In this document: positions 1,378 through 36,807 of the stretch, in pieces
How positions within the stretch are numbered: the first letter of the stretch is position 1
Layout of the letters: each line of letters starts with the position of its first letter
Program-made: the position numbers and the translations under genes
Notes under the pieces: generated by a model
Told to the model about the DNA's origin: nothing
Seen by the model: only the letters and a program-made list of their open reading frames with translations
Database searches by the model: none
NCBI GenBank assembly: GCA_937128795.1
Contig: CAKZMQ010000022.1
Location: forward strand, 28,511-92,510
Reading direction: 5' to 3'
Length of the DNA: 64,000 nucleotides
Source of the DNA: an uncultured Solirubrobacterales bacterium
GTDB lineage: Bacteria; Actinomycetota; Thermoleophilia; Solirubrobacterales; JACPNS01

Positions 1378-2366
1378 CGGGTCTCCTCAAGACTGTCTTC
1401 GTCAGCGTGCTCAACGTGCTCGCCGGTCAAGGTCAGGAATACGTCGTCGAGCGTCGGGCGGTGCACGAAGACTTCGTCGATCTCGATGTCGTGCTCTTCG
1501 AGAAGGTCGATCAGGCGGGCGATCTGCTTCGGACCGTCCGTCAGAGCGGCGGTAATTGTTCGCTCGTCGACGTCGCGTTCGACGACTTCGCAGTTCTTGC
1601 CTTCGATCAGCGACTGCGCGCGTTCGACTGCGCTGGCGTCCGTGAGCTTCAATTCCAGACGCTCGCCGCCGACTTGGTCCTTCAGTTCGTCGGAAGTCCC
1701 GCGGGCGATCACACGCCCGTGGTCGATCACGACGACCTCGTCGGCCAGTTGATCGGCCTCGTCGAGGTATTGAGTCGTGAGCAGTACGGTCGTGCCGCGA
1801 CCGACCAGTTCCTCGATCAGTTCCCACATGCCGAGCCGGCTGCGCGGGTCCAGCCCGGTTGTGGGCTCGTCGAGAAAGAGAATGTCTGGCTCAGCGATCA
1901 TGCTGGCCGCGAGGTCGAGCCGTCGACGCATACCGCCGGAGTACGTACCGGCAGGGCGATCCGCAGCGTCGGCGAGGTCAAAGCGCGCGAGCAGGTCGTT
2001 CGCTCGCGGCTTGACTGCAGCCTTTTCCATCCGTGCAAGTCGGCCGATCATTTCGAGGTTCTCGCGGCCCGTCAGCAGTTCGTCCACCGCCGTGTCCTGG
2101 CCGGTGAGCCCGATTTTCGTGCGGACGTCGTTCGGCTGTTTTGCGAGGTCGAAGCCGGCAACGGAGGCGTGGCCGCCGTCGGGACGCAATAGCGTTGTCA
2201 ACATGCGAACGGTCGTCGTCTTGCCGGCACCGTTGGGGCCGAGCAGCGCGGTGACGGTTCCGGTGTTGACGGTCAGATCGACGCCGTCGACGGCCTTGGT
2301 TTCGCCGAAGTGTTTCGTCAACCCTTCGGCGTGAATCGCAATATCGGGCATATCAATGTCTCTCAA
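1374..2366 (-). CDS. ABC transporter ATP-binding protein (DrrA/daunorubicin-resistance-like)
   Basis: Walker A GPNGAGKTT, ABC signature YSGGMRRRL, Walker B ILFLDEPTTGLD. A C-terminal extension typical of the DrrA subfamily is present. Confidence 0.9.
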   Translation of the reverse strand: MRDIDMPDIAIHAEGLTKHFGETKAVDGVDLTVNTGTVTALLGPNGAGKTTTVRMLTTLLRPDGGHASVAGFDLAKQPNDVRTKIGLTGQDTAVDELLTGRENLEMIGRLARMEKAAVKPRANDLLARFDLADAADRPAGTYSGGMRRRLDLAASMIAEPDILFLDEPTTGLDPRSRLGMWELIEELVGRGTTVLLTTQYLDEADQLADEVVVIDHGRVIARGTSDELKDQVGGERLELKLTDASAVERAQSLIEGKNCEVVERDVDERTITAALTDGPKQIARLIDLLEEHDIEIDEVFVHRPTLDDVFLTLTGEHVEHADEDSLEETR

Positions 2367-2454
2367 TTTTTGATGTGGTTTCGCGCGGGGCAGGGGCTAC
2401 TCATTGATCAGACGACGGATACTAGATACGCGAACGGATGTTCGTATTGGGGAG

Positions 2455-3993
2455 TTACGCGACGATAGCGGCGCCGCCCCGGCGGGGATCGCCCGCACCG
2501 GCCAACTCGCCCTGGGAATCGAGCCCTACGGCTTGGCAGCCACCAAAGAAGAGATTCTTCCGGTCCCACTGCGCGGCCGGAATGCCGGACTTCTGCAATT
2601 CCTCGATCGCCAATTCGTCGATCCCGGGCTCTGCCTGGACCATGCCGTCTTCGAAGTGCAGCCGCGGCGCCTGCACCGCCTCTTCGATCGACATCCCGCG
2701 GTCAATCACGTTGACGACCGTTTGCAGCACGGCAGAACGGATGCGGTTCGACCCGGCCGAGCCGACCACCACGGTCGGCTTCCCGTCCTCGATCACGATC
2801 GTCGGCGACATCATCGACGTCACCCGCTCACCCGCGCGGTTGTTCTCGGCGCCGAGCGGATTCAGATCCATCTCGCCAAGCATGTTGTTGAGCGAGATTC
2901 CCGTACCGGGGACGATGACGCCGGAGCAGGATCCGTTCGAGCAGGTGCACGACACCGCCATCCCCTCTGCGTCGAGCACCGAGATGTGCGTGGTCGACCC
3001 GACCGTGTCACCGCCACTGGCCGGACCGCCGCGCTGGACGGATTCGTGCTCGCCAGTCAGCCAACTCGCGCCGGACTGCAGGAATTCGTCCCAGAATCCC
3101 GGCCGCGAGAGGCCTTCAACGAACTCGCGGTCACGACCGCGGTTGGCAAAATCCATCGCGGCGACCAACTCCTGTACCCCGACCCGATCGGAGGCCGAAA
3201 GGTGAACGAAGCTGTCGGCAATCAGCAGCCCACCGGAGGACGGCGGCGGATTCGTGATCACTCGCCGCCCGCGATACTGCGTCTCTCCTGGGGTTCGATC
3301 CTGTACGGCGTACGCGGCAAGGTCATCGCGGGTCAGAGTTCCGCCGTGTTCGCAGACGTAGTCGGCGATCGCGTGTGCGATTTCCCCGGTATAGAACGGA
3401 TCCGGACCCTCCTCGGCAAGGCGCTCGATCGCCTCGCCAAACTCCGGCAGGAACAAGCGCTCGCCGACCTGCGGCATGTTGCCGTCGGGGGCATAGACGG
3501 CGCGGCCTTCGGGCCAATTGGTGAGGATCGGCGCGAGGATCCTGTATAGGAACGCGTGCAGCTCAGATGTGACGACACCCTCACGCGAGAGTTGGACAGC
3601 CGGTGCCGCAAGATCCGGCATGCGCGCAGTACCGAAGCGATCGAGTGCCTGCCAAATCCCAGCGGCCGTTCCATACACGCCACAGGTCGCGGGGCCGCCG
3701 TTGAACTGCTGGACGGCACCCTCAAAATCGACCATGAACTCGACGTGGCTCGCCGCAGGAGCGACTTCGCTCGGCGAAGCGACGAAGAAGTCGAGCAGAT
3801 GGCTCTCGCCGCCCGGCGTGTGGATCAGCATGAATCCGCCGGCGCCGATCCCGGTGAGCGGCGATTCAGCAATGAACGAGGTGAGCATTGCCGCGACGGC
3901 GGCGTCAACCGCGTTGCCGCCTTCGCGCAGTACGTCAGCCCCGGCCTCTGCGGTCAGCTCGTGACCGGCGGCGATAACCCCGCGGCTACTCAT
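2455..3993 (-). CDS. ggt: gamma-glutamyltransferase
   Basis: 512 aa. The autoprocessing/catalytic Thr region is GSTTHISVLDAEG, and the downstream block is GISLNNMLGE...GERVTSMMSPT. Confidence 0.85.
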   Translation of the reverse strand: MSSRGVIAAGHELTAEAGADVLREGGNAVDAAVAAMLTSFIAESPLTGIGAGGFMLIHTPGGESHLLDFFVASPSEVAPAASHVEFMVDFEGAVQQFNGGPATCGVYGTAAGIWQALDRFGTARMPDLAAPAVQLSREGVVTSELHAFLYRILAPILTNWPEGRAVYAPDGNMPQVGERLFLPEFGEAIERLAEEGPDPFYTGEIAHAIADYVCEHGGTLTRDDLAAYAVQDRTPGETQYRGRRVITNPPPSSGGLLIADSFVHLSASDRVGVQELVAAMDFANRGRDREFVEGLSRPGFWDEFLQSGASWLTGEHESVQRGGPASGGDTVGSTTHISVLDAEGMAVSCTCSNGSCSGVIVPGTGISLNNMLGEMDLNPLGAENNRAGERVTSMMSPTIVIEDGKPTVVVGSAGSNRIRSAVLQTVVNVIDRGMSIEEAVQAPRLHFEDGMVQAEPGIDELAIEELQKSGIPAAQWDRKNLFFGGCQAVGLDSQGELAGAGDPRRGGAAIVA

Positions 3994-4071
3994 GCGGCAG
4001 CGCCCACAGATTCCGTCGAGTCGGCGAACCCCATCGATGGACGGTACCGAGCCGGCACCACGGACCAGACG

Positions 4072-5715
4072 TCAGCCGCGCGGAACGAACTCGGGCACGT
4101 CGATGTCGTTGAGCTCCATCGATCCACCGCCAGAGCCACCTCGACGAACGCGCGGTTCGCGATCCACCCGCGTTGCCTCGATCAGGGCCGAACCGCGCGC
4201 GTTACCGCCGCGGGCACCTTCTGATTCGATGCGCCCATGGCGCGGGCGATGGTCGTTGTAACGGGTTGCGATGACCGTCACCCAGACCTGATCGGTCAGG
4301 TTCGGATCGACCATTGCCCCGAAGATGATGTTGGCCTCCGGATGGGCAGCTTCCTGAACGATCTGCGCCGCCTCGTTGACCTCCCAGAGTGAGAGGTCGG
4401 GGCCACCGGTGATTGACAGCAGGATCGAACGCGCGCCCTCGATGCTCGTCTCGAGCAACGGCGAGCTGACGGCCTGATTGGCGGCGTCGGTCGAGCGTGT
4501 GTCGGTGCCACCGGCACCCATACCGATACCAAGCAGAGCTTGCCCCGCGTCGGACATGATCGTGCGCACGTCAGCGAAGTCGATGTTGATCAGCCCCGCG
4601 AGCGTGACGAGATCGCTGATTCCCTGCACGCCCTGGCGCAGAACGTCATCGGCCACGCCGAAGGCTTCGACCATTGAAGTGTTTTTGTCGAGGATTGCCA
4701 GCAGCCGGTCGTTAGGCACGACGATCAGCGTGTCGACCTCTTCCGCAAGTGATTCCACACCGAGCGTGGCGGCGCCCTTGCGGCGTGTTCCCTCGAAACC
4801 GAACGGTGTGGTGACGATGCCGACCGTCAATGCGTCGACCTCGCGTGCGATGCGCGCAACTATTGGCGCAGCGCCGGTACCAGTACCGCCACCCGCGCCG
4901 GCTGTGATGAAGATCATGTCGCTGCCCTTGAGCACGCGCTTGATCGCGTCGTAGTCGGCGATCGCTGCGCGAGCGCCCTGCTCCGGGTCCGCTCCTGCGC
5001 CGAGGCCACGCGTGATGTCGCCGCCGATGTGCAGCTTGACGTCGGCACTGCTGCCCTGCAACGACTGCATGTCGGTGTTGATCGCTACGAACTCGACGCC
5101 GGTCACTCCGGCTTCGATCATGCGATCGACGGCGTTGACTCCTGCACCGCCGACACCGACGACGCGAAGCGCCGGCGAGACGACCTGCGACGAACTCGAT
5201 TTGTACGGCGCTGCGTTTGGGTCGGGAAGTTCGCGCCCGTAGCGGGGCGCAGAGTCCTCGTCGGCGGTGTCGAGAATGTCCGACGGTACGTGCATGTCGA
5301 AGACCTTTTTCAGACGCTCTTTGGCGGGAACATCGCTGGCCATCGTGTTGGCCTCGCGCTGAGTCTCGCCGGCCGAGGATTCAGAAACGGCGAAAGCCGC
5401 CTGATCGGCGGCTGGCATCTGATCGTCTGGTGCTGGTTCGGCGCGCTCCTGCTCGGCTGCTTCTTGCTGCTGGGGAGGGGCCTGTCCAGCTGCGGTCCGC
5501 GGCTCCGAAGTCGGCTGCGCCGGGGGCGACGGGTCAGCCGCCGCAGCTTTGTCGTTGGCGGCGGACTCTTCGGCAGTCTCGGATGCGGCCTCTGGCCCGT
5601 CCGTGCGGCGGAAGAGCGAGGCGAGTGGACCCTCGCGCATGCTGGCGCGCTTGTTCACGGCCGGCTTCTTGGCAGCATCACCGGAAGCGTTGTCGGGCCC
5701 GTTATCTGTTGCCAT
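4072..5715 (-). CDS. ftsZ: cell division protein FtsZ with ~190-aa low-complexity N-terminal extension
   Basis: Motifs: [15 protein letters not shown], tubulin signature [13 protein letters not shown]7 loop NIDFADV, C-terminal peptide [10 protein letters not shown]. The ATG at 5715 is preceded by AAGGAGG (5725-5731) with 9-nt spacing. It overlaps the parA stop by 14 nt. An alternative internal ATG at 5343 has GAGG upstream. Confidence 0.85.
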
Positions 5716-6490
5716 GCGCGATGACCTCCTTGGCCAAGTCTCTGTAGGACTGGGCTGCCATGCCGTCGGGGTCGTACTTGAGGACGGACATTCCCTTCAC
5801 GGGAGCCTCCGCGAAGCGAATCGTCTTCTTGATGCGTGATGCAAACACTCGGTCCCCAAAGTTCTCTTCCAACAACTCGATTGCTTCCTTGGCGTGAAGC
5901 GTGCGTGAATCAACCAACGTCGGCAAAATGCCTTCGATGTCGACATCCGGGTTGAGGTTCTCGCGGATCATCGCCAAGGTGTTCTGCAACTGGATGAGCC
6001 CCCTCATTGAGAGGTACTCACACTGTACGGGAACAATAACTTTGTCAGCGGCGGTGAGAGCGTTGATTGTCAGGAGTCCGAGCGATGGCGGCGTGTCAAT
6101 GCAGATGAAGTCGTACTGATCGCGGATCTCATCGAGCGCCTTGTCGAGCGCGCGCTCGCGACCGATCTGGGTGGAAAGCGCCATTTCGGCGCCGGCAAGG
6201 TCGATCGAGGCGACGGCGACGTCCACCTCGCGCTTGACGATGATCTCGCTGATCGGCACTTTGTGGACGAGCACGTCATAGATCGACGTCTCGACCGTGT
6301 CCGGGTCAACGCCCTGTGACATCGTCAGGTTGCCCTGCGGGTCCATGTCGATGCAGAGCACCTTGTGGCCCTCTTCGACGAACGCGGCAGACAGGTTGAG
6401 CGTGGTCGTGGTCTTGGCGACGCCGCCCTTTTGATTGGCGAAGGCGATGACCTTGGCCTTCTTCTTGCTGCTCTTGTTGTTGTCAGTCAT
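5702..6490 (-). CDS. ParA/Soj-family ATPase (orphan, no parB nearby)
   Basis: Deviant Walker [13 protein letters not shown], followed by [10 protein letters not shown] and [10 protein letters not shown]. The start is set at the ATG at 6490 ([17 protein letters not shown]) with GGAG 9 nt upstream. The longer ORF reaching 6820 has no family-like sequence. Confidence 0.85.
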
Positions 6491-6690
6491 TTCGGGCGGC
6501 TCCAGATGAGTCGGTGCGGGGCCGCGCGGCGAGCGACGCCGAACGGCGGAAGTTTGCTTTTGATCAGCCCCGGGAGAGGGCCTACTGCATGGCGTATTCG
6601 TAGAAGGGTGGGGTATTCCTGCCCAGGGGTGATGTTGGATTTTCAGGCTGGATGCGGGATTGCGGCAACTTGCCTTCGTTTTGATGCTTC

Positions 6691-6918
6691 GGGTGGGTTG
6701 ACTTTCGTTTTGGCAGGCGAGAAGGAAGGCGATTGGGCGTGGGGCGCGGTCCTTTGCGGGGCGGGTCGCATTCCAATGGGGGACGTTGGTCCAGGACTCC
6801 CCCTGAGGGGGACTCCTCAATCAAAAACCTGCATCGGAAGGCCATCCACCCAAACAGCCCCGCCGCCCGCGCCGATCCTGCTTCCTTTTCGCCTGCCAGT
6901 ACGAAAGTCAATCCGCCC
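6691..6918. repeat. 38-bp imperfect inverted repeat (arms 6691-6728 and 6881-6918) enclosing 152 bp
   Basis: Arm gggtgggttgactttcgttttggcaggcgagaaggaag versus the reverse complement of cttccttttcgcctgccagtacgaaagtcaatccgccc gives 33/38 Watson-Crick pairs. Four of the five differences are G-U compatible on the + strand. Confidence 0.8.
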
Positions 6919-6958
6919 CTGGCTCCAACCCGAGCCAACACGACTAGCCTCCCGTGCC

Positions 6959-7927
6959 ATGCCAAGCAAGGCGTTCGGCACACCTCCCAAGGACCTCTTC
7001 AAGCACCGGCTGCTGTTCGTCACCGGCAAGGGTGGCGTCGGCAAGACGACCGTTGCAGCGGCACTGGGTCTCGCCGCCGCCAACGCCGGCTTGAAGACGA
7101 TGGTCTGCGAGCTCGATGCACGAGAGCGACTGCACAGCCTTTTCAACGTCCCGACGCGTGGTTTCGAAGAGGTGGAACTCGTCCCAGATCTTCACGCAAT
7201 CGCGATCGACCCACAACACGCGATCGAGGAGTACCTGCTGCTGCAGATCAAGGTGCGACCGGTCTACGACATGTTGTTCAAGAACCGGATCTTCGACTAC
7301 TTCGCCGCCGCAACTCCAGGCCTCGCCGAGCTGGTGACGATCGGCAAGGTCTGGGAGCTCGCGCAGCCGGATCGGCTGACCAAAAAGGCGCAGCGCTACG
7401 ACCTCGTGATCGTCGACGCGCCCGCCACCGGACATGCGCTGGCGATGCTTGAAGCGCCGGAGACGTTCCGCAAGATCGCCAGGATGGGGCCGATCCATCG
7501 CCAGGCCGGCTACATCCAGCAGTTCTTGCACGACCCGGAGCAGACGGCGGTGATCGCGGTTGCCACCGCCGAGGAGATGCCGGTTAACGAAACCGTCGAC
7601 CTGCGAAACGAGTTGATCGAGCGTGTCGGGCTCGATGTGTCGCTCAGCATTCTCAACGCACTCGAACCTGAATTCTTCAGCTCGGCCGAAGTGAAGAAAC
7701 TCCGCGCCGTTGACGCGATCGCCCCGATCGAGGCTGCGATTCTCCAGTCCGAGCGCGCAGCGCGCCAGCGAGAGCAACTCGATCGATTGGGCAACGACCT
7801 TGACCGACCGATCATCACGCTGCCGTTTCTCTATGAAAAGGCGATCGGCCGGGCCGAGCTCTCCGAACTGGCCGAGGCGCTGGCCGAGGATCTTGCAGAA
7901 CCGCTCGACGAGGTGCGCCGCTCGTGA
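6959..7927 (+). CDS. ArsA/Get3-like ATPase, first of a pair (Rv3679-like)
   Basis: P-loop GKGGVGKTT, then DLVIVDAPATGHAL. The start is set at the ATG at 6959 (MPSKAFG); upstream ORF sequence overlaps the inverted-repeat region. Confidence 0.8.
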   Translation: MPSKAFGTPPKDLFKHRLLFVTGKGGVGKTTVAAALGLAAANAGLKTMVCELDARERLHSLFNVPTRGFEEVELVPDLHAIAIDPQHAIEEYLLLQIKVRPVYDMLFKNRIFDYFAAATPGLAELVTIGKVWELAQPDRLTKKAQRYDLVIVDAPATGHALAMLEAPETFRKIARMGPIHRQAGYIQQFLHDPEQTAVIAVATAEEMPVNETVDLRNELIERVGLDVSLSILNALEPEFFSSAEVKKLRAVDAIAPIEAAILQSERAARQREQLDRLGNDLDRPIITLPFLYEKAIGRAELSELAEALAEDLAEPLDEVRRS

Positions 7928-9009
7928 ACCTCGAACAACTCCTCGACGGCAAGAAGGTCGCGGTCTGTGCCGGCTCGGGCGGAGTCGGCAAGACAACGAC
8001 GAGCGCGTCGATCGCGATCGGCATGGCTGCCCGCGGCAAGCGCGTGGCGGTTCTGACCATCGATCCGGCGAAGAGATTGGCGGATTCGCTCGGGCTCAGC
8101 GAACTCGGCACCGAGTTGCGCGAGGTTGACCCGAAACTCTTCACGCCCTTCGGCGTCGAGTTGACCGGTGAGCTGCATGCCGCGATGCTGGATCCCAAGC
8201 GCACATTCGATGAGCTGATCGAGCGCTACGCGCCGGATCACGAGACCTACGAGCGAATCCTCGAAAATCGCATCTACCAGGAGCTCTCGAATGCGATCGC
8301 CGGTTCGCAGGAGTACATGGCGATGGAGAAACTGCTCGAACTTCACGAGGAGGGCGACTTCGACCTGCTCGTGCTCGACACTCCCCCATCCCGCAACGCA
8401 CTCGATTTTCTCGACGCGCCCAAGCGGCTTGCACGCTTTATCGACGGGCGTTCGCTGCGTGTGTTCCTGGCGCCCGGTCGCTTCGGGTTGCGCATCGCGG
8501 GCCGCGGCGGAAGCATGATCTTCTCGGCGCTGAAACGCATCACCGGGATCGATCTGCTCAACGACCTCTCCGAGTTCTTCAGCAACTTCGCCGACATGGC
8601 GAGCGGGTTCAGCGAACGCGCTCAGCGCGTCGACGCTTTGCTGCGCGGGCGGCAATCCACTTTTCTACTGATCTGCTCGCCAGAAAACGAACCGGTCGAC
8701 GAGGCGATCTTTTTTCGCCGCATGCTCAAAGAACAGAAGCTGCCGTTCGGCGGCGCGATCGTCAACAAGGTGCGTCCGGACTACTACCGCGCGCGCAAGC
8801 AGCTACCCGATGAGATCGAAGAGGATCTCGCGACACGGGTGATGGAGAACTACGAACGCCAGCGACTGCTCGGCAAACGCGACGGCGAGAACATCGCCCG
8901 GCTCGAAAAATCGCTCTCGGCCGACAAGGTCATTCAGATCCCGTTGTTTTCCGACGACATCCATGGCGTCGAGGGTTTGGTCCACATGGTGGACCAGCTC
9001 TTCGAGTAG
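7924..9009 (+). CDS. ArsA/Get3-like ATPase, second of a pair (Rv3680-like)
   Basis: P-loop GSGGVGKTT, then TIDPAKRLADSLGL and LVLDTPPSRNALDFL. The GTG start overlaps the upstream stop (GTGA), indicating coupling. Confidence 0.8.
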   Translation: MNLEQLLDGKKVAVCAGSGGVGKTTTSASIAIGMAARGKRVAVLTIDPAKRLADSLGLSELGTELREVDPKLFTPFGVELTGELHAAMLDPKRTFDELIERYAPDHETYERILENRIYQELSNAIAGSQEYMAMEKLLELHEEGDFDLLVLDTPPSRNALDFLDAPKRLARFIDGRSLRVFLAPGRFGLRIAGRGGSMIFSALKRITGIDLLNDLSEFFSNFADMASGFSERAQRVDALLRGRQSTFLLICSPENEPVDEAIFFRRMLKEQKLPFGGAIVNKVRPDYYRARKQLPDEIEEDLATRVMENYERQRLLGKRDGENIARLEKSLSADKVIQIPLFSDDIHGVEGLVHMVDQLFE

Positions 9010-9025: not shown

Positions 9026-11599
9026 TCAGCAGGCGCCGGAGAAGTCGTCCGGATCGTCGAGGTCTGGCGGCACTACCGGTCGAAACTCGATCGTCGCCGG
9101 ACCGATCGACTGCGACCGAGCGGTTTCACTCGAACCGGGCTTGACCGTCGGCTCTTCATCGACCTGCTCGGGCGTGACGAGCCGCAACTGCGGTTCGACT
9201 TGTTCCGCCGGTGGGCGCTGCTCGGCGACCGCGTCGTCGTCGTCGGTCGAGGCGTCGCGATCCGGCTCGGCGGCGGCTTCCGGAAGCTCGCCGCGGCGCA
9301 GGAACTGCTCGCTCCAAGCCAGTTGCGCTGCCTCTTCGGCGCTGTTGCTCTCCGAAAGCGCGTCGTATTCGATCGTCGCCTGCGGGTCGACGGGGGCGGA
9401 CGGATTGGAACCGAAAATTTCCGGGTGAACGATGCGCGGCTGCGACGGCGTCGGGGCGGCGTTTTCGATCGATTTCAGGTGGGCGCGCTCGTTGCGAGCG
9501 AACGGCGTTGACGCGTTTTCGTCAACCGGAGGAGCTGGCGGAGTGAAGTTCTCATCCATGATCTCGCGAAAACTCTCGCGCTGAGACGGACCGCCGACGG
9601 AACGGTCGGTGTGCTCGGCCGCGGGACCGAGGCCAACGGGTAGGCCGAACTCGGGGATCGGGAAGGCCTGAACACCGTCTGCATTTTCGCCGATGGGCTC
9701 GACGCTCCTCGGCTGGACGCTCCGATCACTCGACCGCTCCGTCCGACCGGTCGATGGCTCTGGCCCAGACGTCATCGGGCCGTCTGGGACGTCGATCTTC
9801 TTGAAGTCGAAAGTGAACCCGGTACCCACCTCGGCGCCGATCGGGGCGTGCAGATCCCCACGCGGCGCCGGCGGACGAGCCGCAACCGGGCGACGTTCCG
9901 GACTCGCGTCCCAGGCTGGAACATCTGCCGCGAGCTGCGAAGCGCTCGGCTCGTCGGAGTCGGCGACGGCATCTGAGTCAGCGTTTGCGCTGGCGTCCGG
10001 CAACTGGTCGTCGAGCGTCGCGTCAAACGCTTCGCCGAACCGGTTGACGACCTCTTCGGCCCGCTCGCGCATCTCCTCGTCCGGTTCGACCGCTGCCGGA
10101 CGAAGCATCCAGACGTTGTCGTCCGCGTTGACGACGTCGGGCGCTCGCGACTCTTCCGACTCTTCGTCGCGCGTGTCGACCGCTGTTATCTCGGCAGTGT
10201 CGTCGAAGACCGACTCGAACTCAACGGTTGCGGTCGGATCGGGCGCCGGGGGTTCTCCCGGTGCCGGAACGGGTTCGAGATAGACGGGTTCGGGGACGAG
10301 GTCTTCGTCGCCGACGGGCTCCCCGTCTGCCGTGAGGATCTCGTCGGCAAGCGCCTTCAGGTCGGTCGAGAGATAGCCACAAACCAAGTCGTGAAGCAGT
10401 GCGCGCAGGTGGCGTTCGGTCTCGGCGATCACCTCGAGCGGTGGGCGCTTGGCGAGACGCTTGCGGTCTGCCCTGCCGACAGCTCCGTCAACCGCCAACC
10501 GCTCCAACGCGAAGGCAGCCTCGACCGAGGCGCGAACCGAGCGTCGCTCGTCTTCGCGCGCGCAGAGCGCAGAGACGCGCGCCGGCATTGCAGCCTTGCC
10601 CGTCTCGTCGCGAACCTCGAGCAAGGCACCGAGCGCGATCAGAAAATCGGTCAGTCCTTCGGCCGGGACGCCGCGCTCGAGGCCCATTTCGAATCGCTTC
10701 AATGCCCACGCCACGCGAGTTCGTTTTTCGGTGCGGCGAACGGCGCTGAGAAACTGCCGCAACTCCTCGTCCTCGCCCCGCAGCAGGTGCCAGGCATCGT
10801 GACGCGCGCGTCCACTGAACGGCAGTGACACTTGATGCCACGCGCCGCCTGTGTCGGCCTGGGCGGTCATCGCCATCGCAACTGAGCCGGGCTTGAACAG
10901 GCGTAGTGCCGTCAGCACCGAGCGCGCAAGCACTCGCACTTCTGCCATCGGCGTCGGAGCATCGCTGGGCGCGTCGACCGAAATCGAGCAAAAACTGTCG
11001 GCACCGGCCGCGGAATCGCTGAAGCGTTCCGCGCATTCGGGATCGATTTCCTCGGGTGCCATCAATTCGACCCCGGCACCGAGGTTGACGTTCTCGCCGT
11101 CGACGACAATCCCGTGAACGGGGATGAATACGGTGGTTACCAGGCGCTCGGCCAGCGCGACTGACTCGAGCTCGGAATAGGCGCGCTCGAATCGATCCTG
11201 CCAGTCGGCGAAGTGTTCGGCGTCGTTCCAGACAGCAGCAAGGAACGCGAGCGCACCGAGGCGGGCGTGCGTCAATTCGCCCACGTCGAGCACGGGCTCG
11301 TCGCGAACGCGCAGGTAGGCGATCATCCCACGCGTACGGGCGAGGTTTTGCGCGGCGCTCTCGAAGGTCGGCAACGTGCGAAGTTGGTCCGCGTGCGAAG
11401 CGACGAACTCGGCGGTCAAGGGGCGATAGGCAAACATCGTCGCGCCCCCACGGTCGCGTGGGTCCTGCTCGGCGGGTCGTACACCGGCATCACCCACCTC
11501 GAAGGGGATTTCCTCCCCGGTCGATAGTTGGTGTTCGAGAAGTTGCGCCGCGTCGTCGGTCAACGCGCGCAGGGAGTCGTGAAGCATTCGATCGCGCAT
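9026..11599 (-). CDS. hypothetical protein: ~480-aa globular N-terminal part plus ~380-aa acidic, Pro-rich, low-complexity C-terminal part
   Basis: Long ORF with no recognisable motifs. The start is placed at the ATG at 11599 (MRDRMLHDSL) because the ORF extension to 11779 would overlap the hxlR-like gene. Confidence 0.55.
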   Translation of the reverse strand: MRDRMLHDSLRALTDDAAQLLEHQLSTGEEIPFEVGDAGVRPAEQDPRDRGGATMFAYRPLTAEFVASHADQLRTLPTFESAAQNLARTRGMIAYLRVRDEPVLDVGELTHARLGALAFLAAVWNDAEHFADWQDRFERAYSELESVALAERLVTTVFIPVHGIVVDGENVNLGAGVELMAPEEIDPECAERFSDSAAGADSFCSISVDAPSDAPTPMAEVRVLARSVLTALRLFKPGSVAMAMTAQADTGGAWHQVSLPFSGRARHDAWHLLRGEDEELRQFLSAVRRTEKRTRVAWALKRFEMGLERGVPAEGLTDFLIALGALLEVRDETGKAAMPARVSALCAREDERRSVRASVEAAFALERLAVDGAVGRADRKRLAKRPPLEVIAETERHLRALLHDLVCGYLSTDLKALADEILTADGEPVGDEDLVPEPVYLEPVPAPGEPPAPDPTATVEFESVFDDTAEITAVDTRDEESEESRAPDVVNADDNVWMLRPAAVEPDEEMRERAEEVVNRFGEAFDATLDDQLPDASANADSDAVADSDEPSASQLAADVPAWDASPERRPVAARPPAPRGDLHAPIGAEVGTGFTFDFKKIDVPDGPMTSGPEPSTGRTERSSDRSVQPRSVEPIGENADGVQAFPIPEFGLPVGLGPAAEHTDRSVGGPSQRESFREIMDENFTPPAPPVDENASTPFARNERAHLKSIENAAPTPSQPRIVHPEIFGSNPSAPVDPQATIEYDALSESNSAEEAAQLAWSEQFLRRGELPEAAAEPDRDASTDDDDAVAEQRPPAEQVEPQLRLVTPEQVDEEPTVKPGSSETARSQSIGPATIEFRPVVPPDLDDPDDFSGAC

Positions 11600-11702
11600 G
11601 AAGGACGAATTCTTCGTCGGCGAACGGCATCCTGCCGCCAGCGCGACCCGCGCCGAGGAAAGTTGGGTAACTATCGCCGAGACCGACGACAGGGAGAGTT
11701 GG

Positions 11703-12122
11703 TCAGGCCGCGGTCTTGACCTTTGCGCGGGCGGCGGCGCGGGCGGCTTCGCGACCCTCGCGACCGCAGAGCTCGCCAAGCCAGTTCTCGCCGTAGCTGC
11801 GCATCGCGGCCACGATCGGGATCAATGCCTCGCCCTTCTTCGTCAGCGCGTACTCAACCCTCGGAGGCACTTCGGCAAACGTCCGACGCTCGACGATGCC
11901 GTTCTCCTCAAGTTCACGTAGGCGGAGCGAAAGCGTTCGCGGGCTGATACCAGCGAGCGAGCGCTCGAGTTCACAAAACCGAGCGTTGTCCTCTGCAAGG
12001 TCACGAATGATGATCGCCGTCCACTTGCTACAGAGGATTTCGGCGGTTGCGCAGACTCCGCAATCGGCGTTGGACCGAACTGCCGCCTTGCTGCTTCGAA
12101 CTGAATCGCTCGACTTGGCCAT
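11703..12122 (-). CDS. HxlR-family transcriptional regulator
   Basis: ILCSKWTAIIIRDL...RFCELERSLAGISPRTLSLRLRELEENGIVERR...PPRVEYALTKKG is the winged-helix HxlR signature. Confidence 0.85.
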   Translation of the reverse strand: MAKSSDSVRSSKAAVRSNADCGVCATAEILCSKWTAIIIRDLAEDNARFCELERSLAGISPRTLSLRLRELEENGIVERRTFAEVPPRVEYALTKKGEALIPIVAAMRSYGENWLGELCGREGREAARAAARAKVKTAA

Positions 12123-12199: not shown

Positions 12200-13540
12200 C
12201 TACTGCGACGGGCCGCCCGGTGCCACCGGCTGCTCGCTGGCCTGCTGCTCCATGCGCCGCGCAAGATCCTCGGGGTCGAACGCCGGCACGGCATCACCTT
12301 CGCCCTGCCCGTTCGTCTGCGGTGACGGTGCGGGCGTGCCTGACGCGCCCGTCTGCAGCGCGGCAGCCTTCTGCGCCGCTGCCTCCTTGGCGGCCTCTTC
12401 GGCCTCCTTGGTGGCCGCGAAATCCGCCTGCGCGGCCTCCATCACCTTGTCCATCGAGCCGTCTGAGCCGCCGGCGGCGACCATCAACTTGAAGTCGTTC
12501 GGCGAGGTCGCGGCCTTCATCGCCTCTTCCATCGAGATGTTTCCGGCCTTCAGGTGGGTGAGCAGGGCTTGGTCGAAAGTCTGCATGCCGTAGTACGCGC
12601 CCTCGCCAATCGCTTCCTCGATCTTCGAGGTTTGATCCGGGTCGACGATCATGTCTTTGATTCGGCTGGTCGCGACCATCACTTCGACGATCGGTACGCG
12701 GCCTTTGCCGTCGACCGTCCGAACGAGCCGCTGCGAGATGATGCCCTTCAGCGTTCCGGCAAGCATCGCACGCACCTGCGGGTTCTGGTGCAAGGGGAAA
12801 AAGTCGATGATTCGGTTGATCGTCTCCGTCGCGTTCAGGGTGTGAAGCGTCGAGAAAACCAGGTGGCCGGTTTCTGCTGCGGACAATCCGGTTTCGACCG
12901 TCTCTTCGTCACGCATTTCTCCGATCAGGATGACGTCCGGGTCCTGGCGCAGGATCCGGCGCAGCGCGCGGACGAAAGACTCCGTGTCGGCGCCGACTTC
13001 ACGCTGCTGGATGATCGCCTTACTGTCGCGGTGGAGAAATTCGATCGGGTCTTCAAGCGTGATCACGTGCTTGGGCATCGTGTCGTTGATGTGCTTGATC
13101 ATCGCCGCGAGCGTCGTCGACTTACCCGAACCAGTCGTACCGGTGACGAGCACGATTCCGCGCTCTTCCTCAGACAGTTTCTTGATCGCCGGCGGAAGCA
13201 TTAGTTCGTCGATCGACTTGATGTCCATGCCGATTGCGCGCATCACGATCGAGCACGAACCACGCTGGCGGAAAGCATTCACACGAAAGCGCGCAACCCC
13301 GGGCAGCGGGTAGGCGAAGTCGACTTCACCGACGTCCATGAACTCGTCGTACTTCTCCGGCTTTTCGCGGGTGATGTGCTTGAGCACACCGAGCGCATCG
13401 TCCGGCATCACCTTGTCGGTATTCGGGATCGGCTGTAGAACGCCGTTGAGGCGTTGCATCGGCTGAGCGGGGACCTTTATGTGAAGGTCCGATCCACCCG
13501 ACTCGAACAGGTACTTCAGAGCTGCGTCGACGTCAACCAT
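12200..13540 (-). CDS. pilT: PilT-family type IV pilus retraction ATPase with ~95-aa Ala/Glu-rich C-terminal extension
   Basis: Walker A GTTGSGKSTT, Asp box, GHLVFSTLHTLNA and GTLKGIISQRL. The C-terminal ~95 aa are low complexity. Confidence 0.8.
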   Translation of the reverse strand: MVDVDAALKYLFESGGSDLHIKVPAQPMQRLNGVLQPIPNTDKVMPDDALGVLKHITREKPEKYDEFMDVGEVDFAYPLPGVARFRVNAFRQRGSCSIVMRAIGMDIKSIDELMLPPAIKKLSEEERGIVLVTGTTGSGKSTTLAAMIKHINDTMPKHVITLEDPIEFLHRDSKAIIQQREVGADTESFVRALRRILRQDPDVILIGEMRDEETVETGLSAAETGHLVFSTLHTLNATETINRIIDFFPLHQNPQVRAMLAGTLKGIISQRLVRTVDGKGRVPIVEVMVATSRIKDMIVDPDQTSKIEEAIGEGAYYGMQTFDQALLTHLKAGNISMEEAMKAATSPNDFKLMVAAGGSDGSMDKVMEAAQADFAATKEAEEAAKEAAAQKAAALQTGASGTPAPSPQTNGQGEGDAVPAFDPEDLARRMEQQASEQPVAPGGPSQ

Positions 13541-13598: not shown

Positions 13599-14753
13599 CT
13601 ACGCGACTTCGCGCAATCCTTGGGACCAGCTCAGTTTGCGGAGTTTGCGTAGCGAATGCGTCTCGATGTGGCGTACTCGTTCACGCGTGATGTTGAATAC
13701 TTTGCCGACCTCGTCGAGCGTCTTGGGTTGCTCGCCGCCGATTCCGAAGCGAAGTTCGAGCACACGGCGTTCGCGGTATGAAAGGTTGGCCAATGCGCTG
13801 TGCAGATTCTGCGATCGCAGCGAATCTGCGGCGGCGTCGAACGGGTCGGGGGCGTTCTCGTCGGCCACGAACTGGCCGAACTCGCTCTCCTCTTCGTCGC
13901 CGACAGGCTTTTCCAGCGAAATCGGCGTCTGCGCAAGCCGGCGTATTTGCTCCACCTCGTCCTTGCTGATTTCGGTGATCGCGGCGATCTCGTCGACCGT
14001 CGGCTCTCGACCCAGTTCGCCGAGCAGCTGGCGCTCTGCGCGCGTGATCTTGTTCAGCCGCTCGACGACATGGACCGGGATGCGCACAGTGCGGCCCTTG
14101 TCGGCCAGTGCGCGCGCGATTGCTTGGCGGATCCACCAGGTTGCGTAGGTGGAAAACTTGAAGCCCTTGCGATAGTCGAACTTTTCAGCCGCGCGGACAA
14201 GGCCGAGCGTTCCCTCTTGGATCAGGTCGAGGAACGAAAGACCTTGGTTGCGGTAATTCTTGGCGATTGAGACGACGAGGCGCAGGTTGGCCTCGACCAT
14301 CTTGTCCTTGGCGTCCATGTCGCCGCGCTCGATGCGTCGGGCGAGTTGGACCTCTTCGGCGGCGGTCAGCAGGTTCACGCGGCCGATTTCTTTTAGGAAC
14401 AGCTGGAGTGAGTCGGTCGTGCTCTCGAGCGCGGGGCTTTCGGCGAGCTTTGAGGTCTTCGTCTTCTTGGCGATTGCGGCGGTCCAGGACGCCTCGCCCG
14501 AGTGGTCCTCGTCCATCTCGTCGAGCACGTCGATATCGGCCTGCTCGAGCCAGCCGCGGAGAGTTTCCGGTTCGACTCCCTCGATCCCGGAGTCGTTGGC
14601 CAGAGCCATCGCTTCGCCGAGCGTCGCGATGTTCGCCTGTCGACAACGCTCGACCAAGAGCCGCAACTCATCGGACGATTCGAGCAGTGCGAGGTCGGGA
14701 ATGACTACGTCAGCGGCGACGCCTGCCTGTGTCTGGAGATCTCCTGCTGACAT
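13599..14753 (-). CDS. sigA: primary-like RNA polymerase sigma factor (SigA/RpoD group)
   Basis: Region 2 LIQEGTLGLVRAAEKFDYRKGFKFSTYATWWIRQAI; region 4.2 TLDEVGKVFNITRERVRHIETHSLRKLR. The start is uncertain (ATGs at 14768, 14759, 14753). 14753 has GAGGAG 7 nt upstream. Confidence 0.9.
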   Translation of the reverse strand: MSAGDLQTQAGVAADVVIPDLALLESSDELRLLVERCRQANIATLGEAMALANDSGIEGVEPETLRGWLEQADIDVLDEMDEDHSGEASWTAAIAKKTKTSKLAESPALESTTDSLQLFLKEIGRVNLLTAAEEVQLARRIERGDMDAKDKMVEANLRLVVSIAKNYRNQGLSFLDLIQEGTLGLVRAAEKFDYRKGFKFSTYATWWIRQAIARALADKGRTVRIPVHVVERLNKITRAERQLLGELGREPTVDEIAAITEISKDEVEQIRRLAQTPISLEKPVGDEEESEFGQFVADENAPDPFDAAADSLRSQNLHSALANLSYRERRVLELRFGIGGEQPKTLDEVGKVFNITRERVRHIETHSLRKLRKLSWSQGLREVA

Positions 14754-15236
14754 TCCCATTCTCCTCATTAACCGCGATTATTGGCAACCAAACAACCGGT
14801 ACCCGATCCTGCACCGTGGCAATCGATCTCGACAGAAAGTGGACGGTGAGTCGCGTTTTCTCTCGCGGCCCTCGGTCCTGCGTCGCGAATACCGATAATG
14901 CGGGACGAGCTGGCTGGCTGGCCGACCCAAGTTTTCGCCGCGAATGTCCGTGATTTCGCCCCGTAAACCGCTTGTTAATGCGATTCAGGTGCTTGCAAGT
15001 AATTACGGACAATCTGCGAAGGCTTGAAATTCGACCTGCACCCCCATTCTAAGCGTTTCCCGACTATCCGTGGGGTGAATTATGAAAATTTGGACGTGCG
15101 TACAGGGGGCGATGGACCCAGGTCCAATGGACGGTGTCCACCCACGCACGGCCGCCGTCCATATCTCCGATTGCGGCGGCGGCGGAATCCGAGTAGTCTC
15201 GGCGCGACCAAGACGGCTACTTCAGGAGTTGAATCG

Positions 15237-33950: not shown

Positions 33951-34027
<77 letters not shown>

Positions 34028-34057
34028 AAAACTCCCCGGAAATCTGGGGAGTTTTTT
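34028..34057. terminator. intrinsic terminator (bidirectional) after the tRNA and after the rep-like gene
   Basis: Perfect 10-bp stem aaaactcccc/ggggagtttt, loop ggaaatct, then a T-run. On the other strand it is followed by ttttgtat. Confidence 0.7.
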
Positions 34058-34883
34058 ATTGCGTATTTTCGCGACGTCGACAATCTAACGAGCGATCTAA
34101 CAATCGGTCGTCTCCCCTGTCGGCCGGAAGCGGGTCAAAGACCCACCACGGGATTTCAGTCCCGGAGTAGATGCGGCAGTACTTACCCGCTCCCAAGAGC
34201 GGCTCCCACTCGCATTCACCCGCACCCTCCTGAGCAGGGCCACCAAAGATGGAACCCTCGGCCGGATCGAATGCTGGGGCCGCCGGAAAGTCTCTTGAAA
34301 AGCCGTAGGCGCGTTGCCCTTCCTCAAGGTCGGCCAGCCTGTGCGAGATGTACTTCGAGCAATACCGCGCATGTTCTGGCTTCGCACGTTCGATGAATTG
34401 TTGCGACCCGAAACCGCTCTCTTCAACCAGCTTGCGCCAAAGCTCCAGGTCATCACGAAACCACTTCATGAAGAAGATGCCGTGGTAATGCAACGTGCCG
34501 TTTTCTTGACGCTGAAGCACCCAGCCGTATCCGGCGAGGAGCTTGCGATAGCGCAGCTTTGAGATCAGACGGCGCAAGCATTCGTGGGCCTCCGCCGCCG
34601 TTGGCGCGCGATCCTCCGGGAAGGTCAGCGTTACGAACGCCGGAAACATTCCCTTCGGCGGCTTCTGAATCGCTACTCGAAATCGACCCGCCAACTCCCA
34701 CTGCTTGCGCATCGCGCAGCCCGGACACCTGCGCCATCGCTTGCACGCGACCTCGATCCGTTCGCCGTGATTGGCGCACTCCAACATCAGCGGCGAACTA
34801 CAGACCCATTTCGATGAACTTTTCGCACTTGTTCGTAATAGCTCGCCCTTCGGGCTCGCTTTCAAGGAAACAGTCCTAAACAT
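34056..34883 (-). CDS. rolling-circle (HUH-type) replication initiator-like protein
   Basis: N-terminal zinc-ribbon-like CANHGERIEVACKRWRRCPGCAMRK, an HUH-like motif GTLHYHGIFF and a Tyr motif RYCSKYISH. The assignment rests on motifs only. Confidence 0.5.
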   Translation of the reverse strand: MFRTVSLKASPKGELLRTSAKSSSKWVCSSPLMLECANHGERIEVACKRWRRCPGCAMRKQWELAGRFRVAIQKPPKGMFPAFVTLTFPEDRAPTAAEAHECLRRLISKLRYRKLLAGYGWVLQRQENGTLHYHGIFFMKWFRDDLELWRKLVEESGFGSQQFIERAKPEHARYCSKYISHRLADLEEGQRAYGFSRDFPAAPAFDPAEGSIFGGPAQEGAGECEWEPLLGAGKYCRIYSGTEIPWWVFDPLPADRGDDRLLDRSLDCRRRENTQ

Positions 34884-35250
34884 CGCTTTCGCTTGACCCT
34901 CCGATGTCCGTAGCCGGTGTGGTCCCGGCCGCTGGGACGGGCTGAGGCCCTTCCCAACGCCCTACAACCGAAACGGCCAGACCGAGCTGAAAATGGACGT
35001 AGAGGAGCGTCGAGACTTCCGACACCTTCTGAGAGTCATTGGCGAGCTTCTTGATCTCATCCGACAGGTGCCCTCTGAGTCCGTTCGCGATTCGATCCCA
35101 GTGCCCCCGAGTTTCAGGCCCGAATTCCGGAAACACGCGGATTAGCGAATCCAGATCTTGAAAACGTGCGCGAACCCCGTCGCGTTGCAAATCCCCTAGC
35201 GCCTTGTGTGCGGCCCAGAGATGTACCTGGGCTTGGTCAAGTCCGTCCAT
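34876..35250 (-). CDS. hypothetical protein (124 aa) of the integrative element
   Basis: The ORF overlaps the rep-like start by 8 nt (coupled). No motif is recognised. Confidence 0.45.
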   Translation of the reverse strand: MDGLDQAQVHLWAAHKALGDLQRDGVRARFQDLDSLIRVFPEFGPETRGHWDRIANGLRGHLSDEIKKLANDSQKVSEVSTLLYVHFQLGLAVSVVGRWEGPQPVPAAGTTPATDIGGSSESDV

Positions 35251-35321
35251 GACTAGGACTGTGCCTGAGGTTCGCGAGCCGTGCAGGGTTTTCCACTAAG
35301 TGCCGGAAGATCCGCTTTGCC

Positions 35322-36053: not shown

Positions 36054-36689
36054 CGGAGGCCGACCGTCAGGCACACCGTACGCAGCGTTCGAGAAGCGCT
36101 CCGGTTCATATGCGCCCAGCTCGTTGCCCCATTGAGTCCAGCCCGGACGCTCGTTGCGAGCGAAAAGTTCTAGCCACGGACCCGGCGAGCACGACTCCAC
36201 TACGTCGTACATCTGATCGGGCTTACGCGAGTGCTCGCGCTTGCGCTCCGAGACGAGATTGACTTGCGTCCGACCGGGGTCGAGTGTGCGGTTCTGCTTT
36301 CCGCGAATGCCAAACAACACCATCTCGGTCACATTGCGGAAGTAGAAGCCGACGCCGCGACCGTCTGGGCCGCCGTCCTTCCTCGTCTTGTACCAAACCA
36401 AGTTTGTCTTGTACTCAAAGCCCCAGGCTTCCATTACGGCAAGTCCGTCGGCGAGCAGCGCGTTAGGCACCCAGAGGTATAGGTGGGACTTGTCAGCGAC
36501 GACGCTTGACACCGGCAAATCGCAAATCTCCGCCGTCGTCATCGTCTCGTATCGGGCGAGCCTTTGATGCTCAGGGGCCATTTTCCCGGTGCGATTCTGG
36601 AAACGCCACGGGGGATCTGCGAGCACCGTCCGAAACGGGTCGTGCTTCTTCGTAAGTGCCTTCATTGACTGATGCGTCAAGTTCTCCAT
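36036..36689 (-). CDS. MT-A70-family DNA (N6-adenine/N4-cytosine) methyltransferase
   Basis: Catalytic DPPW motif (VLADPPWRFQNR), then LYLWVPNALL and a C-terminal HSRKPD. The start is set at the ATG at 36689 (MENLTHQ). Confidence 0.8.
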   Translation of the reverse strand: MENLTHQSMKALTKKHDPFRTVLADPPWRFQNRTGKMAPEHQRLARYETMTTAEICDLPVSSVVADKSHLYLWVPNALLADGLAVMEAWGFEYKTNLVWYKTRKDGGPDGRGVGFYFRNVTEMVLFGIRGKQNRTLDPGRTQVNLVSERKREHSRKPDQMYDVVESCSPGPWLELFARNERPGWTQWGNELGAYEPERFSNAAYGVPDGRPPLVAVG

Positions 36690-36807
36690 GATTACCCCTC
36701 TGTTCAACGGCCGCGTCCGCTTGCCTCTAGCCGAGATGGCAAACGTAGTGGTTCCAGCGGCCGGATCCGTATGTACGAACATACGTTCGTGTCACCGCCG
36801 GACGGAA

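Follow-up and report, generated by a model that had tools for sequence, protein, structure and literature searches.

Why should an actinobacterium keep an ftsZ gene away from its other division genes, begin it inside a parA gene, and place a tail of about 180 residues in front of the GTPase core of its product? This question is raised by a 64,000-nucleotide (nt) stretch of DNA from an uncultured Solirubrobacterales bacterium (contig CAKZMQ010000022.1, positions 28,511 to 92,510 of the forward strand; referred to as the window), in which a gene for a Soj/ParA-type ATPase and a long-form ftsZ, whose product is here called FtsZ-L, occupy positions 4072 to 6490. We found that the two genes are joined throughout a bacterial clade and that the tip of the FtsZ-L tail is an invariant peptide, and we argue that the gene is probably an extra FtsZ paralog confined to this clade rather than the main division gene in a new place. 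We further propose, at about even odds, that the tail is the partner peptide of the neighboring ParA.

The three genes of the locus follow each other on the minus strand in the order parA, ftsZ-L, and ggt, and parA and ftsZ-L are translationally coupled. An earlier note on this DNA had given ATG 5715 as the start of ftsZ, with AAGGAGG 9 nt upstream of it and a 14-nt overlap with the parA stop codon, and all of these were read in the sequence. The features of the locus are listed below (aa, amino acids; ORF, open reading frame; AF2, AlphaFold2).

5702 to 6490, minus strand: parA, a deviant Walker A ATPase of the Soj/ParA type, 262 aa (translation and Pfam).
4072 to 5715, minus strand: long-form ftsZ (FtsZ-L), 547 aa plus stop (ORF, Pfam, and NCBIfam).
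2455 to 3993, minus strand: ggt, gamma-glutamyltranspeptidase family (Pfam G_glu_transpept, 5.5e-103); a signal peptide is not evident.
5725 to 5731, minus strand: Shine-Dalgarno sequence AAGGAGG within the parA coding sequence, with a spacer of 9 nt to the ftsZ ATG.
5702 to 5715, minus strand: 14-nt overlap of the ftsZ start (ATG, 5715 to 5713) and the parA stop (TAA, 5704 to 5702).
5176 to 5715, minus strand: N-terminal extension of FtsZ-L, residues 1 to 180, predicted to be disordered.
5602 to 5652, minus strand: motif 1, residues 22 to 38, an invariant basic/hydrophobic peptide (115-sequence alignment).
5272 to 5328, minus strand: motif 2, residues 130 to 148, a short predicted helix within the disordered region (alignment and AF2).
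4258 to 5175, minus strand: FtsZ GTPase core and FtsZ_C, residues 181 to 486 (Pfam and TIGR00065).
4141 to 4164, minus strand: C-terminal linker motif DREPRVRR, residues 518 to 525 (115-sequence alignment).
4075 to 4107, minus strand: C-terminal peptide, residues 537 to 547 (115-sequence alignment).
6590 to 6665, minus strand: conserved noncoding element upstream of parA (alignment of 14 relatives).

The genetic context was as the earlier note had described it. Pfam scans of the ORFs of the 64-kb window detected no gene of the dcw cluster (for division and the cell wall), placing this ftsZ outside a dcw context. The parA gene upstream is an orphan and ggt lies downstream: a parB gene was found neither in the window nor, as a ParB-type ORF with the GERRxRA box, in 82 further loci (L001 to L082).

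The claim that the FtsZ core is complete was likewise borne out. FtsZ-L scores 398 bits against the NCBIfam ftsZ equivalog TIGR00065 (cutoff, 295), Pfam Tubulin matches residues 184 to 342 (3.6e-45), and FtsZ_C matches residues 391 to 484 (5.8e-30), while the motifs GVGGAG, GGGTGTG, NIDFADV (the T7 loop), and DIDVPEFV stand at residues 187, 275, 377, and 537, respectively. A search of 5.8 billion proteins yielded at least 120 clusters of such long-form FtsZ proteins of 480 to 580 aa, most of them with a query coverage of 95 to 100%; where named, they are labeled by their sources as Solirubrobacterales, Thermoleophilaceae, or Thermoleophilia. Homologs of FtsZ-L were aligned, 25 at first and 115 later, and the conservation values given here refer to the 115 sequences. 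The G-box and T7 residues are invariant, D379 and D382 among them, and so are P541, E542, F543, and P545 of the C-terminal peptide, which in the short, dcw-type FtsZ treated below reads DIDIP(E/S)FLKD. The C-terminal linker also contains a motif, D-x-E-P-R-V-x-R, with P521 and R525 invariant and D518, E520, and V523 conserved at 90% or more; this motif, at 4141 to 4164, brings FtsZ-L to four short linear motifs. Judged by these residues, FtsZ-L looks like a fully competent polymerizing GTPase with a normal C-terminal anchoring peptide.

The N-terminal extension is of a very different nature. Residues 1 to 180 include 21% Ala, 11% Pro, 10% Ser, and 9% each of Asp and Glu; seven Lys or Arg residues fall within the first 38 positions, and the linker that follows (residues 39 to 130) has 27% Ala, 13% each of Pro and Glu, and 10% Gln, with a net charge of −15. 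In an AF2 model built on the 115-sequence alignment, the core was confident and the predicted local distance difference test score (pLDDT) was below 50 across most of the extension, in agreement with the disorder claimed earlier. The exceptions were a helix at residues 131 to 140 (pLDDT of about 68) and a 3-residue helix at 32 to 34. Among 114 long-form homologs the N-terminal region up to the core measures 123 to 216 aa, and the linker is variable in length and cannot be aligned. Two stretches are nevertheless conserved. In motif 1, M26, R27, E28, G29, P30, L31, A32, L34, F35, and T38 are invariant and R23, A24, S25, and R36 are conserved at 90% or more, the residues KRAS that precede Met26 being likewise conserved. 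Motif 2 follows the pattern P-x-x-(E/D)RL-x-x-(V/A)F...P..I(L/M), in which R134, L135, and F139 are invariant and V138 and P144 reach at least 90%.

These data bear on the start of translation, for which the earlier note had left Met125 (5343) as an alternative to ATG 5715. Among the fetched loci motif 1 is encoded by 74 distinct DNA versions, with up to five synonymous codons per position, and despite the variable linker it stays in frame with the core at 90 to 190 codons upstream. It lies in a different frame from the core in six loci, most of them long-read metagenome-assembled genomes, and these are taken to be indel errors. Since the peptide is fixed at the protein level in the face of synonymous change, it is under protein-level purifying selection, and translation must therefore begin before Met26 and well before Met125, which we set aside. 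The start candidates left in the window are ATG 5715 and a GTG at codon 20; in relatives the ATG corresponding to the former overlaps the parA stop every time. Thus, the long form is real and translated, and the extension is conserved among the orthologs of the clade.

A profile of motif 1 was then searched against 1.84 billion representative proteins (E ≤ 0.001), giving 1,043 matches. The best 150 of these all lie at or near an N-terminus (positions 1 to 95) and resemble fragments of FtsZ-L; because all 150 are FtsZ-type, there is no sign of a docking peptide common to other proteins, and the peptide is, by this search, private to the FtsZ-L family. Nothing relevant was found in Pfam at E ≤ 10 for motif 1, motif 2, or the whole extension. 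Matches of the motifs to FXR_C3, a Toxoplasma protein, and 17-beta-HSD14 were dismissed as noise.

To what extent is the linkage to parA conserved? Loci were fetched from species-representative genomes (80) and metagenomes (80), with several more by exact look-up, and a parA ortholog was called if it was at least 60% identical, immediately upstream, and on the same strand. The resulting 169 ftsZ loci fell into 94 with motif 1 and parA directly upstream, 4 with motif 1 no more than 100 nt from a contig end, and 71 with neither; the latter comprise truncated pieces as well as FtsZ from Bacillota, Nitrospirota, Chloroflexota, Acidimicrobiia, and other groups. No locus among the 169 had parA without motif 1. 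Motif 1 and parA hence co-occur in 94/94 testable loci, which answers in the affirmative the earlier question of whether the linkage is kept in the clade. At every intact junction the ftsZ start (ATG, or GTG in locus L022) overlaps the parA stop by 4, 8, 11, 14, or 29 nt, always in the same frame relation. The arrangement, with the 29-nt overlap, is shared by the Gaiellales-type genomes L039, L040, and L042, whose FtsZ-L has motif 1, a shorter linker (the extension being about 110 aa), and a different C-terminus (LEPPSFLAS); motif 2 was not recognizable in the two intact Gaiellales-type sequences (L039 and L040). Of 44 genome loci, 41 have a ggt gene close to ftsZ-L, the Gaiellales type included, at a gap of 78 nt in the window and 10 nt in L169, so that the conserved block is parA-ftsZL-ggt. 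No gene for a centromere-binding protein was found within this block. That the ggt enzyme might act on the Glu-rich tail of FtsZ-L is pure speculation.

The earlier note had taken this gene for the division ftsZ of the organism, displaced from the dcw cluster. This was not supported. A search with the foreign half of contig L050 (see below) returned at least 120 clusters of a short, 362-aa FtsZ, named at NCBI as Thermoleophilaceae, Solirubrobacterales, and Conexibacter. On megabase-scale contigs, whose proteins bear Thermoleophilaceae, Solirubrobacterales, or Conexibacter labels, the short ftsZ directly follows ftsQ at the end of a dcw cluster, murE-murF-mraY-murD-ftsW-murG-murC-murB-ftsQ-ftsZ, and has gcvTHP, a tRNA synthetase gene, and scpA-scpB downstream of it. 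In contrast, none of the 44 long-form genome loci had murC, murB, ftsQ, ftsW, or murG within 10 kb. The long and short proteins are 56% identical by full-length BLASTP and 63% identical on average over the trimmed core. In a neighbor-joining tree of 34 FtsZ cores (200 bootstraps), the long forms together with the Gaiellales type made up one clade and the short forms another, each with 100% support, and the two appeared as sisters with a support of 54%. The short form is the slower evolving, with 69% identity to Bacillota FtsZ versus 61.5% for the long form. Since a separate dcw ftsZ exists in the clade, at about 56 to 63% identity and in a 100% clade of its own, the window gene is best read as a second FtsZ paralog. 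The simplest reading of these sequences is that an old duplication, placed at the base of Thermoleophilia or close to it, left the dcw copy canonical and that the other copy gained the tail and ParA.

The second, dcw-located ftsZ whose existence the earlier note had raised was thus found in Thermoleophilia relatives, and a pair of both forms within one genome was not, in NCBI accession blocks, GCA assemblies, or contig matching of cluster members; nor did a metagenome scan reveal a contig common to both. At the level of samples, to which the ERZ identifiers of the European Nucleotide Archive (ENA) refer, ERZ25039586 contains two different long forms and ERZ25039588 contains both forms, the long one on contig_4966 and the short one on contig_10976. 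We infer that long and short ftsZ occur together in one genome. The binned Solirubrobacterales contig L050 was considered as a two-ftsZ genome and rejected: at L050:2322-3618, about two-thirds of an ftsZ with 85% DNA identity to the short form is joined head to head to half a long form (82%), gcvT-gcvH-gcvP follow the foreign half, and the chimera is probably an assembly artifact. An internal rearrangement similar to that of L050 was observed in database entry P0391 ("ftsZ, partial, Conexibacter sp.").

We then asked what kind of ATPase is encoded upstream. Its best Pfam match is AAA_31 (212 bits), and CbiA and MipZ match too, the MipZ match being partial (residues 14 to 163, 49 bits against a cutoff of 20.7). 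The protein looks active by its sequence, with the Walker A motif KGGVAKT at residue 21 (K21 and K26), Walker A' DMDPQGN at 48, and Walker B IDTPPS at 131 all intact. A further motif, IRFAEAP at 224, contributes R225, which aligns with the Arg of nvRlaeap in Thermus thermophilus Soj and which we take to be the equivalent of Soj R189, required for DNA binding. With this Arg kept and no C-terminal amphipathic helix present, the nucleoid is the likely matrix of the ATPase. ParA is 71 to 99.6% identical to its orthologs upstream of long-form ftsZ; over the same 28 loci the median identity is 84% for ParA versus 55% for full-length FtsZ-L, and this higher conservation would fit a conserved interface.

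The closest solved relative of the window ParA is a protein of Mycobacterium smegmatis (4PFS/5IHP/5IF9; 209 bits, 45% identity), with which it has the Walker A sequence KGGVAKTTT in common; ParA 8RAY (197 bits) comes next, ahead of the Soj proteins of T. thermophilus (167 bits) and Helicobacter pylori. The mycobacterial structures were deposited as "cobyrinic acid a,c-diamide synthase," a misleading name. By synteny with gpm2, entC, whiB, pdtaS, and rhlE, we take 4PFS to be MSMEG_1927, the Rv3213c-type third mycobacterial ParA-like gene, and not PldP/Rv1708. A PP2C-like phosphatase gene lies 15 nt downstream of the 4PFS gene (L083:7001-8523), and its N-terminus has no motif-1-like sequence. 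Two Thermoleophilia-type contigs carry scpA-scpB 7 to 9 kb downstream of the short ftsZ (L084:19786-21092 and L085:17478-18844) with no parA-like gene adjacent; PldP-type genes adjoin scpA-scpB in other actinobacteria (PMC10482377), and all actinobacteria have ParABS plus a second parA-like gene, PldP/ParA2 (Chandra and Chater, PMC4255298). From this gene order, the ParA beside ftsZ-L might be this clade's equivalent of PldP, moved to another place.

The overlapping codons, the perfect co-occurrence, and the extreme conservation of both the tip peptide and ParA led us to propose that the peptide docks on ParA. By analogy with ParA systems described elsewhere, the FtsZ-L tail would be the partner peptide of ParA, and ParA would control where FtsZ-L assembles, a reading to which we assign a probability of about 0.5. 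ParA would bind the nucleoid as an ATP dimer, as other Soj-type ATPases do, and the tip peptide of FtsZ-L would dock on this dimer and probably stimulate hydrolysis in the manner of the N-terminal peptides of ParB, MinE, and PomX. Filaments of FtsZ-L, bearing many tails on tethers of 100 to 200 residues, would then constitute a multivalent cargo of ParA, and their position relative to the nucleoid would be set by the ATP cycle of the latter. FtsZ-L might in turn bias the site of the canonical FtsZ ring, either through co-assembly or through common partners of the C-terminal peptide. As FtsZ-L keeps both the C-terminal peptide and the motifs of the longitudinal interface, it might plausibly co-assemble with the dcw FtsZ or compete for the anchors of the latter. 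The outcome could be positive, marking midcell as Pom does, or negative, with FtsZ-L held on DNA as in nucleoid occlusion.

We infer the ParA-peptide contact, the activation of the ATPase, DNA binding by ParA, and the role at the division site from the layout of the two proteins and from what is known of such activators. A basic N-terminal peptide followed by a disordered linker is a known hallmark of ParA/MinD activators such as ParB, MinE, and PomX. N-terminal peptides of 20 to 52 residues suffice for activation of ParA/MinD ATPases, and an activator can arise when a stretch of this kind is grafted onto an interaction domain; the N-terminal region of PomX is Ala/Pro-rich and unstructured (Schumacher et al., PMC7993993). 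FtsZ-L shows the same layout, with a stretch enriched in Lys and Arg at its extreme N-terminus (R23, R27, and R36 conserved at 90% or more), a flexible linker, and a polymerizing core as the interaction domain. By this analogy, a module of parA and an FtsZ paralog that acts in positioning beside canonical FtsZ is plausible. A bolder version, which we rate somewhat below an even bet, holds that FtsZ might itself serve ParA in two ways, as its direct cargo and as a built-in activator of its ATPase, so that the filament would position itself on the nucleoid by a diffusion-ratchet mechanism with no adaptor and would then template or restrain the canonical Z ring, in effect a two-FtsZ system with a ParA-steered "pilot" FtsZ.

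Several points weigh against the proposal that the tail is a ParA partner. No similarity of motifs 1 and 2 to ParB, MinE, or any entry of Pfam or the Protein Data Bank (PDB) could be detected statistically, and PDB searches with motif 2 and with the motif 1 profile at E ≤ 10 returned no ParB or MinE chain. Synteny by itself is a weak argument, because ggt is kept nearly as strictly (41/44) and has no obvious functional link. The two ftsZ forms have not been met in one genome, and the parA-linked gene could be the sole FtsZ of the Gaiellales-type lineage, for which the short form was not searched. Last, motif 1 could equally be a short amphipathic membrane helix or a site for another divisome protein. 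This last point leads to the rival that we regard as unlikely though serious, namely, that the peptide has a role unconnected with ParA, as a membrane helix or as a dock for canonical FtsZ, SepF, or another divisome protein, and that parA is merely co-expressed and acts on ParB or the chromosome. The sequence PLAxLFR(K/R) sets Leu, Leu, and Phe on one helical face beside Arg/Lys, and short membrane helices of MinD and FtsA show such a hydrophobic face next to Arg/Lys. The lack of detectable similarity to ParB or MinE agrees with such a role, ggt illustrates that genes kept tightly together here need not have products that touch each other, and the mycobacterial ParA-like protein Rv1708 binds ParB and ScpA (PMC10482377). 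Direct membrane binding through an amphipathic helix of FtsZ is also reported for Mycoplasma (bioRxiv 10.1101/2023.08.29.555414). However, E28, G29, and P30 are invariant too, whereas membrane helices usually conserve character only, and this suggests a specific protein pocket. Moreover, the AF2 helix at 32 to 34 is just 3 residues long, ParA is unusually conserved, and motif 1 accompanies parA, with overlapping codons, in all 94 loci.

The remaining alternatives concern the nature of the genes rather than the role of the peptide. ParA and FtsZ-L might form a machine for DNA segregation, with a cytomotive filament resembling TubZ or PhuZ and ParA as its nucleoid adaptor, or ParA might be an ordinary chromosomal Soj whose linkage couples segregation to septation. 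Tubulin-family partition filaments exist, the ParA is Soj-like (209 bits to the MSMEG_1927 type, 197 to a ParA, and 167 to T. thermophilus Soj), and the absence of parA beside scpA-scpB in two contigs would allow it to be a relocated PldP equivalent. But FtsZ-L retains the C-terminal peptide that is specific to FtsZ and groups with genuine FtsZ rather than with TubZ-like families, and no centromere-binding protein gene was found in the block; we consider this improbable. Still a little less probable is that FtsZ-L is the only division FtsZ of the organism, moved out of the dcw cluster and furnished with a tail and a dedicated ParA positioner. The gene does pass the ftsZ equivalog with all catalytic and anchoring motifs present, look-ups did not find both forms in the same genome, and for the Gaiellales-type lineage a short form was neither sought nor seen. 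Against this stand the canonical short ftsZ genes carried in dcw clusters by the same families as judged from source labels (both forms bear the labels "Thermoleophilaceae bacterium" and "Solirubrobacterales bacterium"), the chimera L050, which joins short and long ftsZ within one bin, and the sample assembly containing both. In addition, ftsZ lies in a division/cell wall cluster near divIVA in all 100 actinobacterial genomes surveyed by Chandra and Chater, Conexibacter included (PMC4255298). Hardly credible, finally, is that the extension is an annotation artifact, with translation beginning at Met125 (5343) or close to the core and the open frame before it a GC-rich accident. Long spurious ORFs do arise in high-GC DNA, and database entries begin at MREGPLA or further in (P0014, P0033, and P0074) or near the core (P0032 and P0034); but motif 1 keeps its frame through variable linkers and its protein sequence through synonymous change, the KRAS before Met26 is conserved, and the upstream ATG has both a Shine-Dalgarno sequence and the stop/start overlap.

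Other features were noted around the locus. Two genes for Get3/ArsA-type ATPases (6959 to 7927 and 7924 to 9009, both on the plus strand) are divergent from parA and adjoin it in 24/44 and 27/44 loci, respectively; in NCBIfam they match mycobacterial BagA (160 bits) and BagB (316 bits) best, with neither score reaching its equivalog cutoff. The 468-nt intergenic region between bagA and parA includes, 100 to 170 nt upstream of parA, the noncoding element GCGATCCCGC..GCGGAAATCC..CATGA..GTGCAGGAAtAC-N10-12-cTGCGAAtAcG. A scan of 2300 to 7200 for sigma-70 promoters and terminators gave no match, and Rfam had no family at the element, its sole match being a tRNA elsewhere. The element is a probable promoter/operator of the operon, possibly for an alternative sigma factor. 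In many Solirubrobacterales loci, upstream synteny extends to a protein of 917 aa that matches nothing in Pfam or NCBIfam and whose long C-terminal half is acidic and of low complexity (9026 to 11779, minus strand), a PilT-like ATPase (12200 to 13540, minus strand), and a sigma-70 family gene (13599 to 14768, minus strand), in 23, 18, and 15 of 44 loci, respectively. Farther away, a tRNA-Met (33951 to 34024, plus strand) is followed by a stretch of lower G+C content (0.58 to 0.60) within 33951 to 42000, in which the gene for a BglII-like restriction endonuclease (35322 to 36053) overlaps that for an MT-A70 methyltransferase (36036 to 36782); the stretch is likely an integrated island. Positions 50177 to 57517 hold a likely cyclic-di-GMP signaling cluster with a 790-aa protein containing HD_5 and HD domains and two GGDEF proteins (52546 to 54114 and 55385 to 57517).

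What would the module mean if the proposal holds? To our knowledge, actinobacteria lack Min, Noc, and SlmA, and the choice of the division site is a long-standing gap in their biology; PldP and Rv1708 are implicated in it, but we know of no direct link from them to FtsZ. A search of full-text literature found no paper on Thermoleophilia FtsZ, on a parA-ftsZ operon, or on a second actinobacterial ftsZ. A class-wide operon of ParA and a dedicated FtsZ with an activator-like peptide makes it possible to test a ParA-FtsZ link directly, for which a single peptide, ATPase, and filament would do, and since Thermoleophilia are very abundant in soil and cultured members exist, such experiments are feasible. 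If the proposal is true, FtsZ would join the list of ParA cargos, and bacteria would have a two-FtsZ system of the sort known from archaea and plastids. FtsZ-L would also offer a natural example of an FtsZ whose long disordered tether is N-terminal, where current ideas rest on C-terminal linkers. The module points to a form of cytoskeletal-protein placement in soil actinobacteria that is yet to be described.

How, then, does the module compare with known systems? The N-terminus of ParB reads GLGRGLxALL and the contact helix of MinE reads AKERLQIIV. Like these, the tail motifs are N-terminal and basic and contain a short hydrophobic, helix-forming pattern, L-x-x-(L/V)-F, as LAxLF in motif 1 and LxxVF in motif 2; R-x-G-P-L-A-x-L-F-R of motif 1 recalls the ParB sequence and AKERLKKVF of motif 2 recalls that of MinE, resemblances rather than homology, which the searches (E ≤ 10) did not support. 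In the MipZ-ParB-FtsZ system of Caulobacter crescentus, the division site is set by a ParA-like ATPase through direct action on FtsZ, much as is proposed here, and the window ParA matches Pfam MipZ. However, it fits AAA_31 far better (212 versus 49 bits), and MipZ is regulated by ParB and inhibits a single canonical FtsZ through its core, whereas here no parB is nearby and the FtsZ is a second one with a tail. A parallel in architecture is PomXYZ of Myxococcus xanthus, in which the nucleoid-bound ParA-type ATPase PomZ positions a polymer-forming division-site cargo and PomX has, at the N-terminus of an unstructured region rich in Ala and Pro, a conserved Lys/Arg-rich peptide of about 22 residues (PMC7993993), the same architecture as that of the FtsZ-L tail. 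The differences are that the putative activator and cargo would here be FtsZ itself, that no PomX or PomY homolog is involved, that the peptides have no sequence similarity, and that the interaction is proposed by analogy.

Among orphan ATPases, the PldP/Rv1708/MSMEG_3743 and Rv3213c/MSMEG_1927 types are Soj-like and have no adjacent parB, as is the case for the window ParA. Orphan actinobacterial ParA-like ATPases have been implicated in septum placement (PMC10482377, PMC4255298, and PMC3989709). Unlike the ParA described here, neither type lies beside ftsZ: PldP adjoins scpAB, and in M. smegmatis the Rv3213c type has a PP2C gene as its neighbor. Heterocyst-forming cyanobacteria provide a precedent for an N-terminal FtsZ extension conserved within a clade, one that is reportedly needed for normal polymerization and division (PMC6175996). 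That peptide is of about 50 residues, belongs to the sole FtsZ, is unrelated in sequence, and has no ParA link. Most bacteria have a single ftsZ, and extra copies lie outside dcw (PMC9871819; bioRxiv 10.1101/2025.09.29.679267). The extra FtsZ paralogs known so far (FtsZ1/FtsZ3 of Hyphomicrobiales, the second copy of Bipolaricaulota, and FtsZ1/FtsZ2 of archaea and plastids) resemble FtsZ-L in being second copies away from dcw that are presumed to be sub-functionalized (PMC9871819; bioRxiv 10.1101/2025.09.29.679267). The bacterial ones are mostly truncated and devoid of C-terminal motifs (bioRxiv 10.1101/2025.09.29.679267). In contrast, FtsZ-L is enlarged, keeps its linker and C-terminal peptide, adds an N-terminal disordered region with two motifs, and is translationally coupled to ParA; among FtsZ paralogs and ParA-based positioning systems, it stands out by its enlargement, by the N-terminal disordered tether, and by an apparently direct wiring to a ParA.

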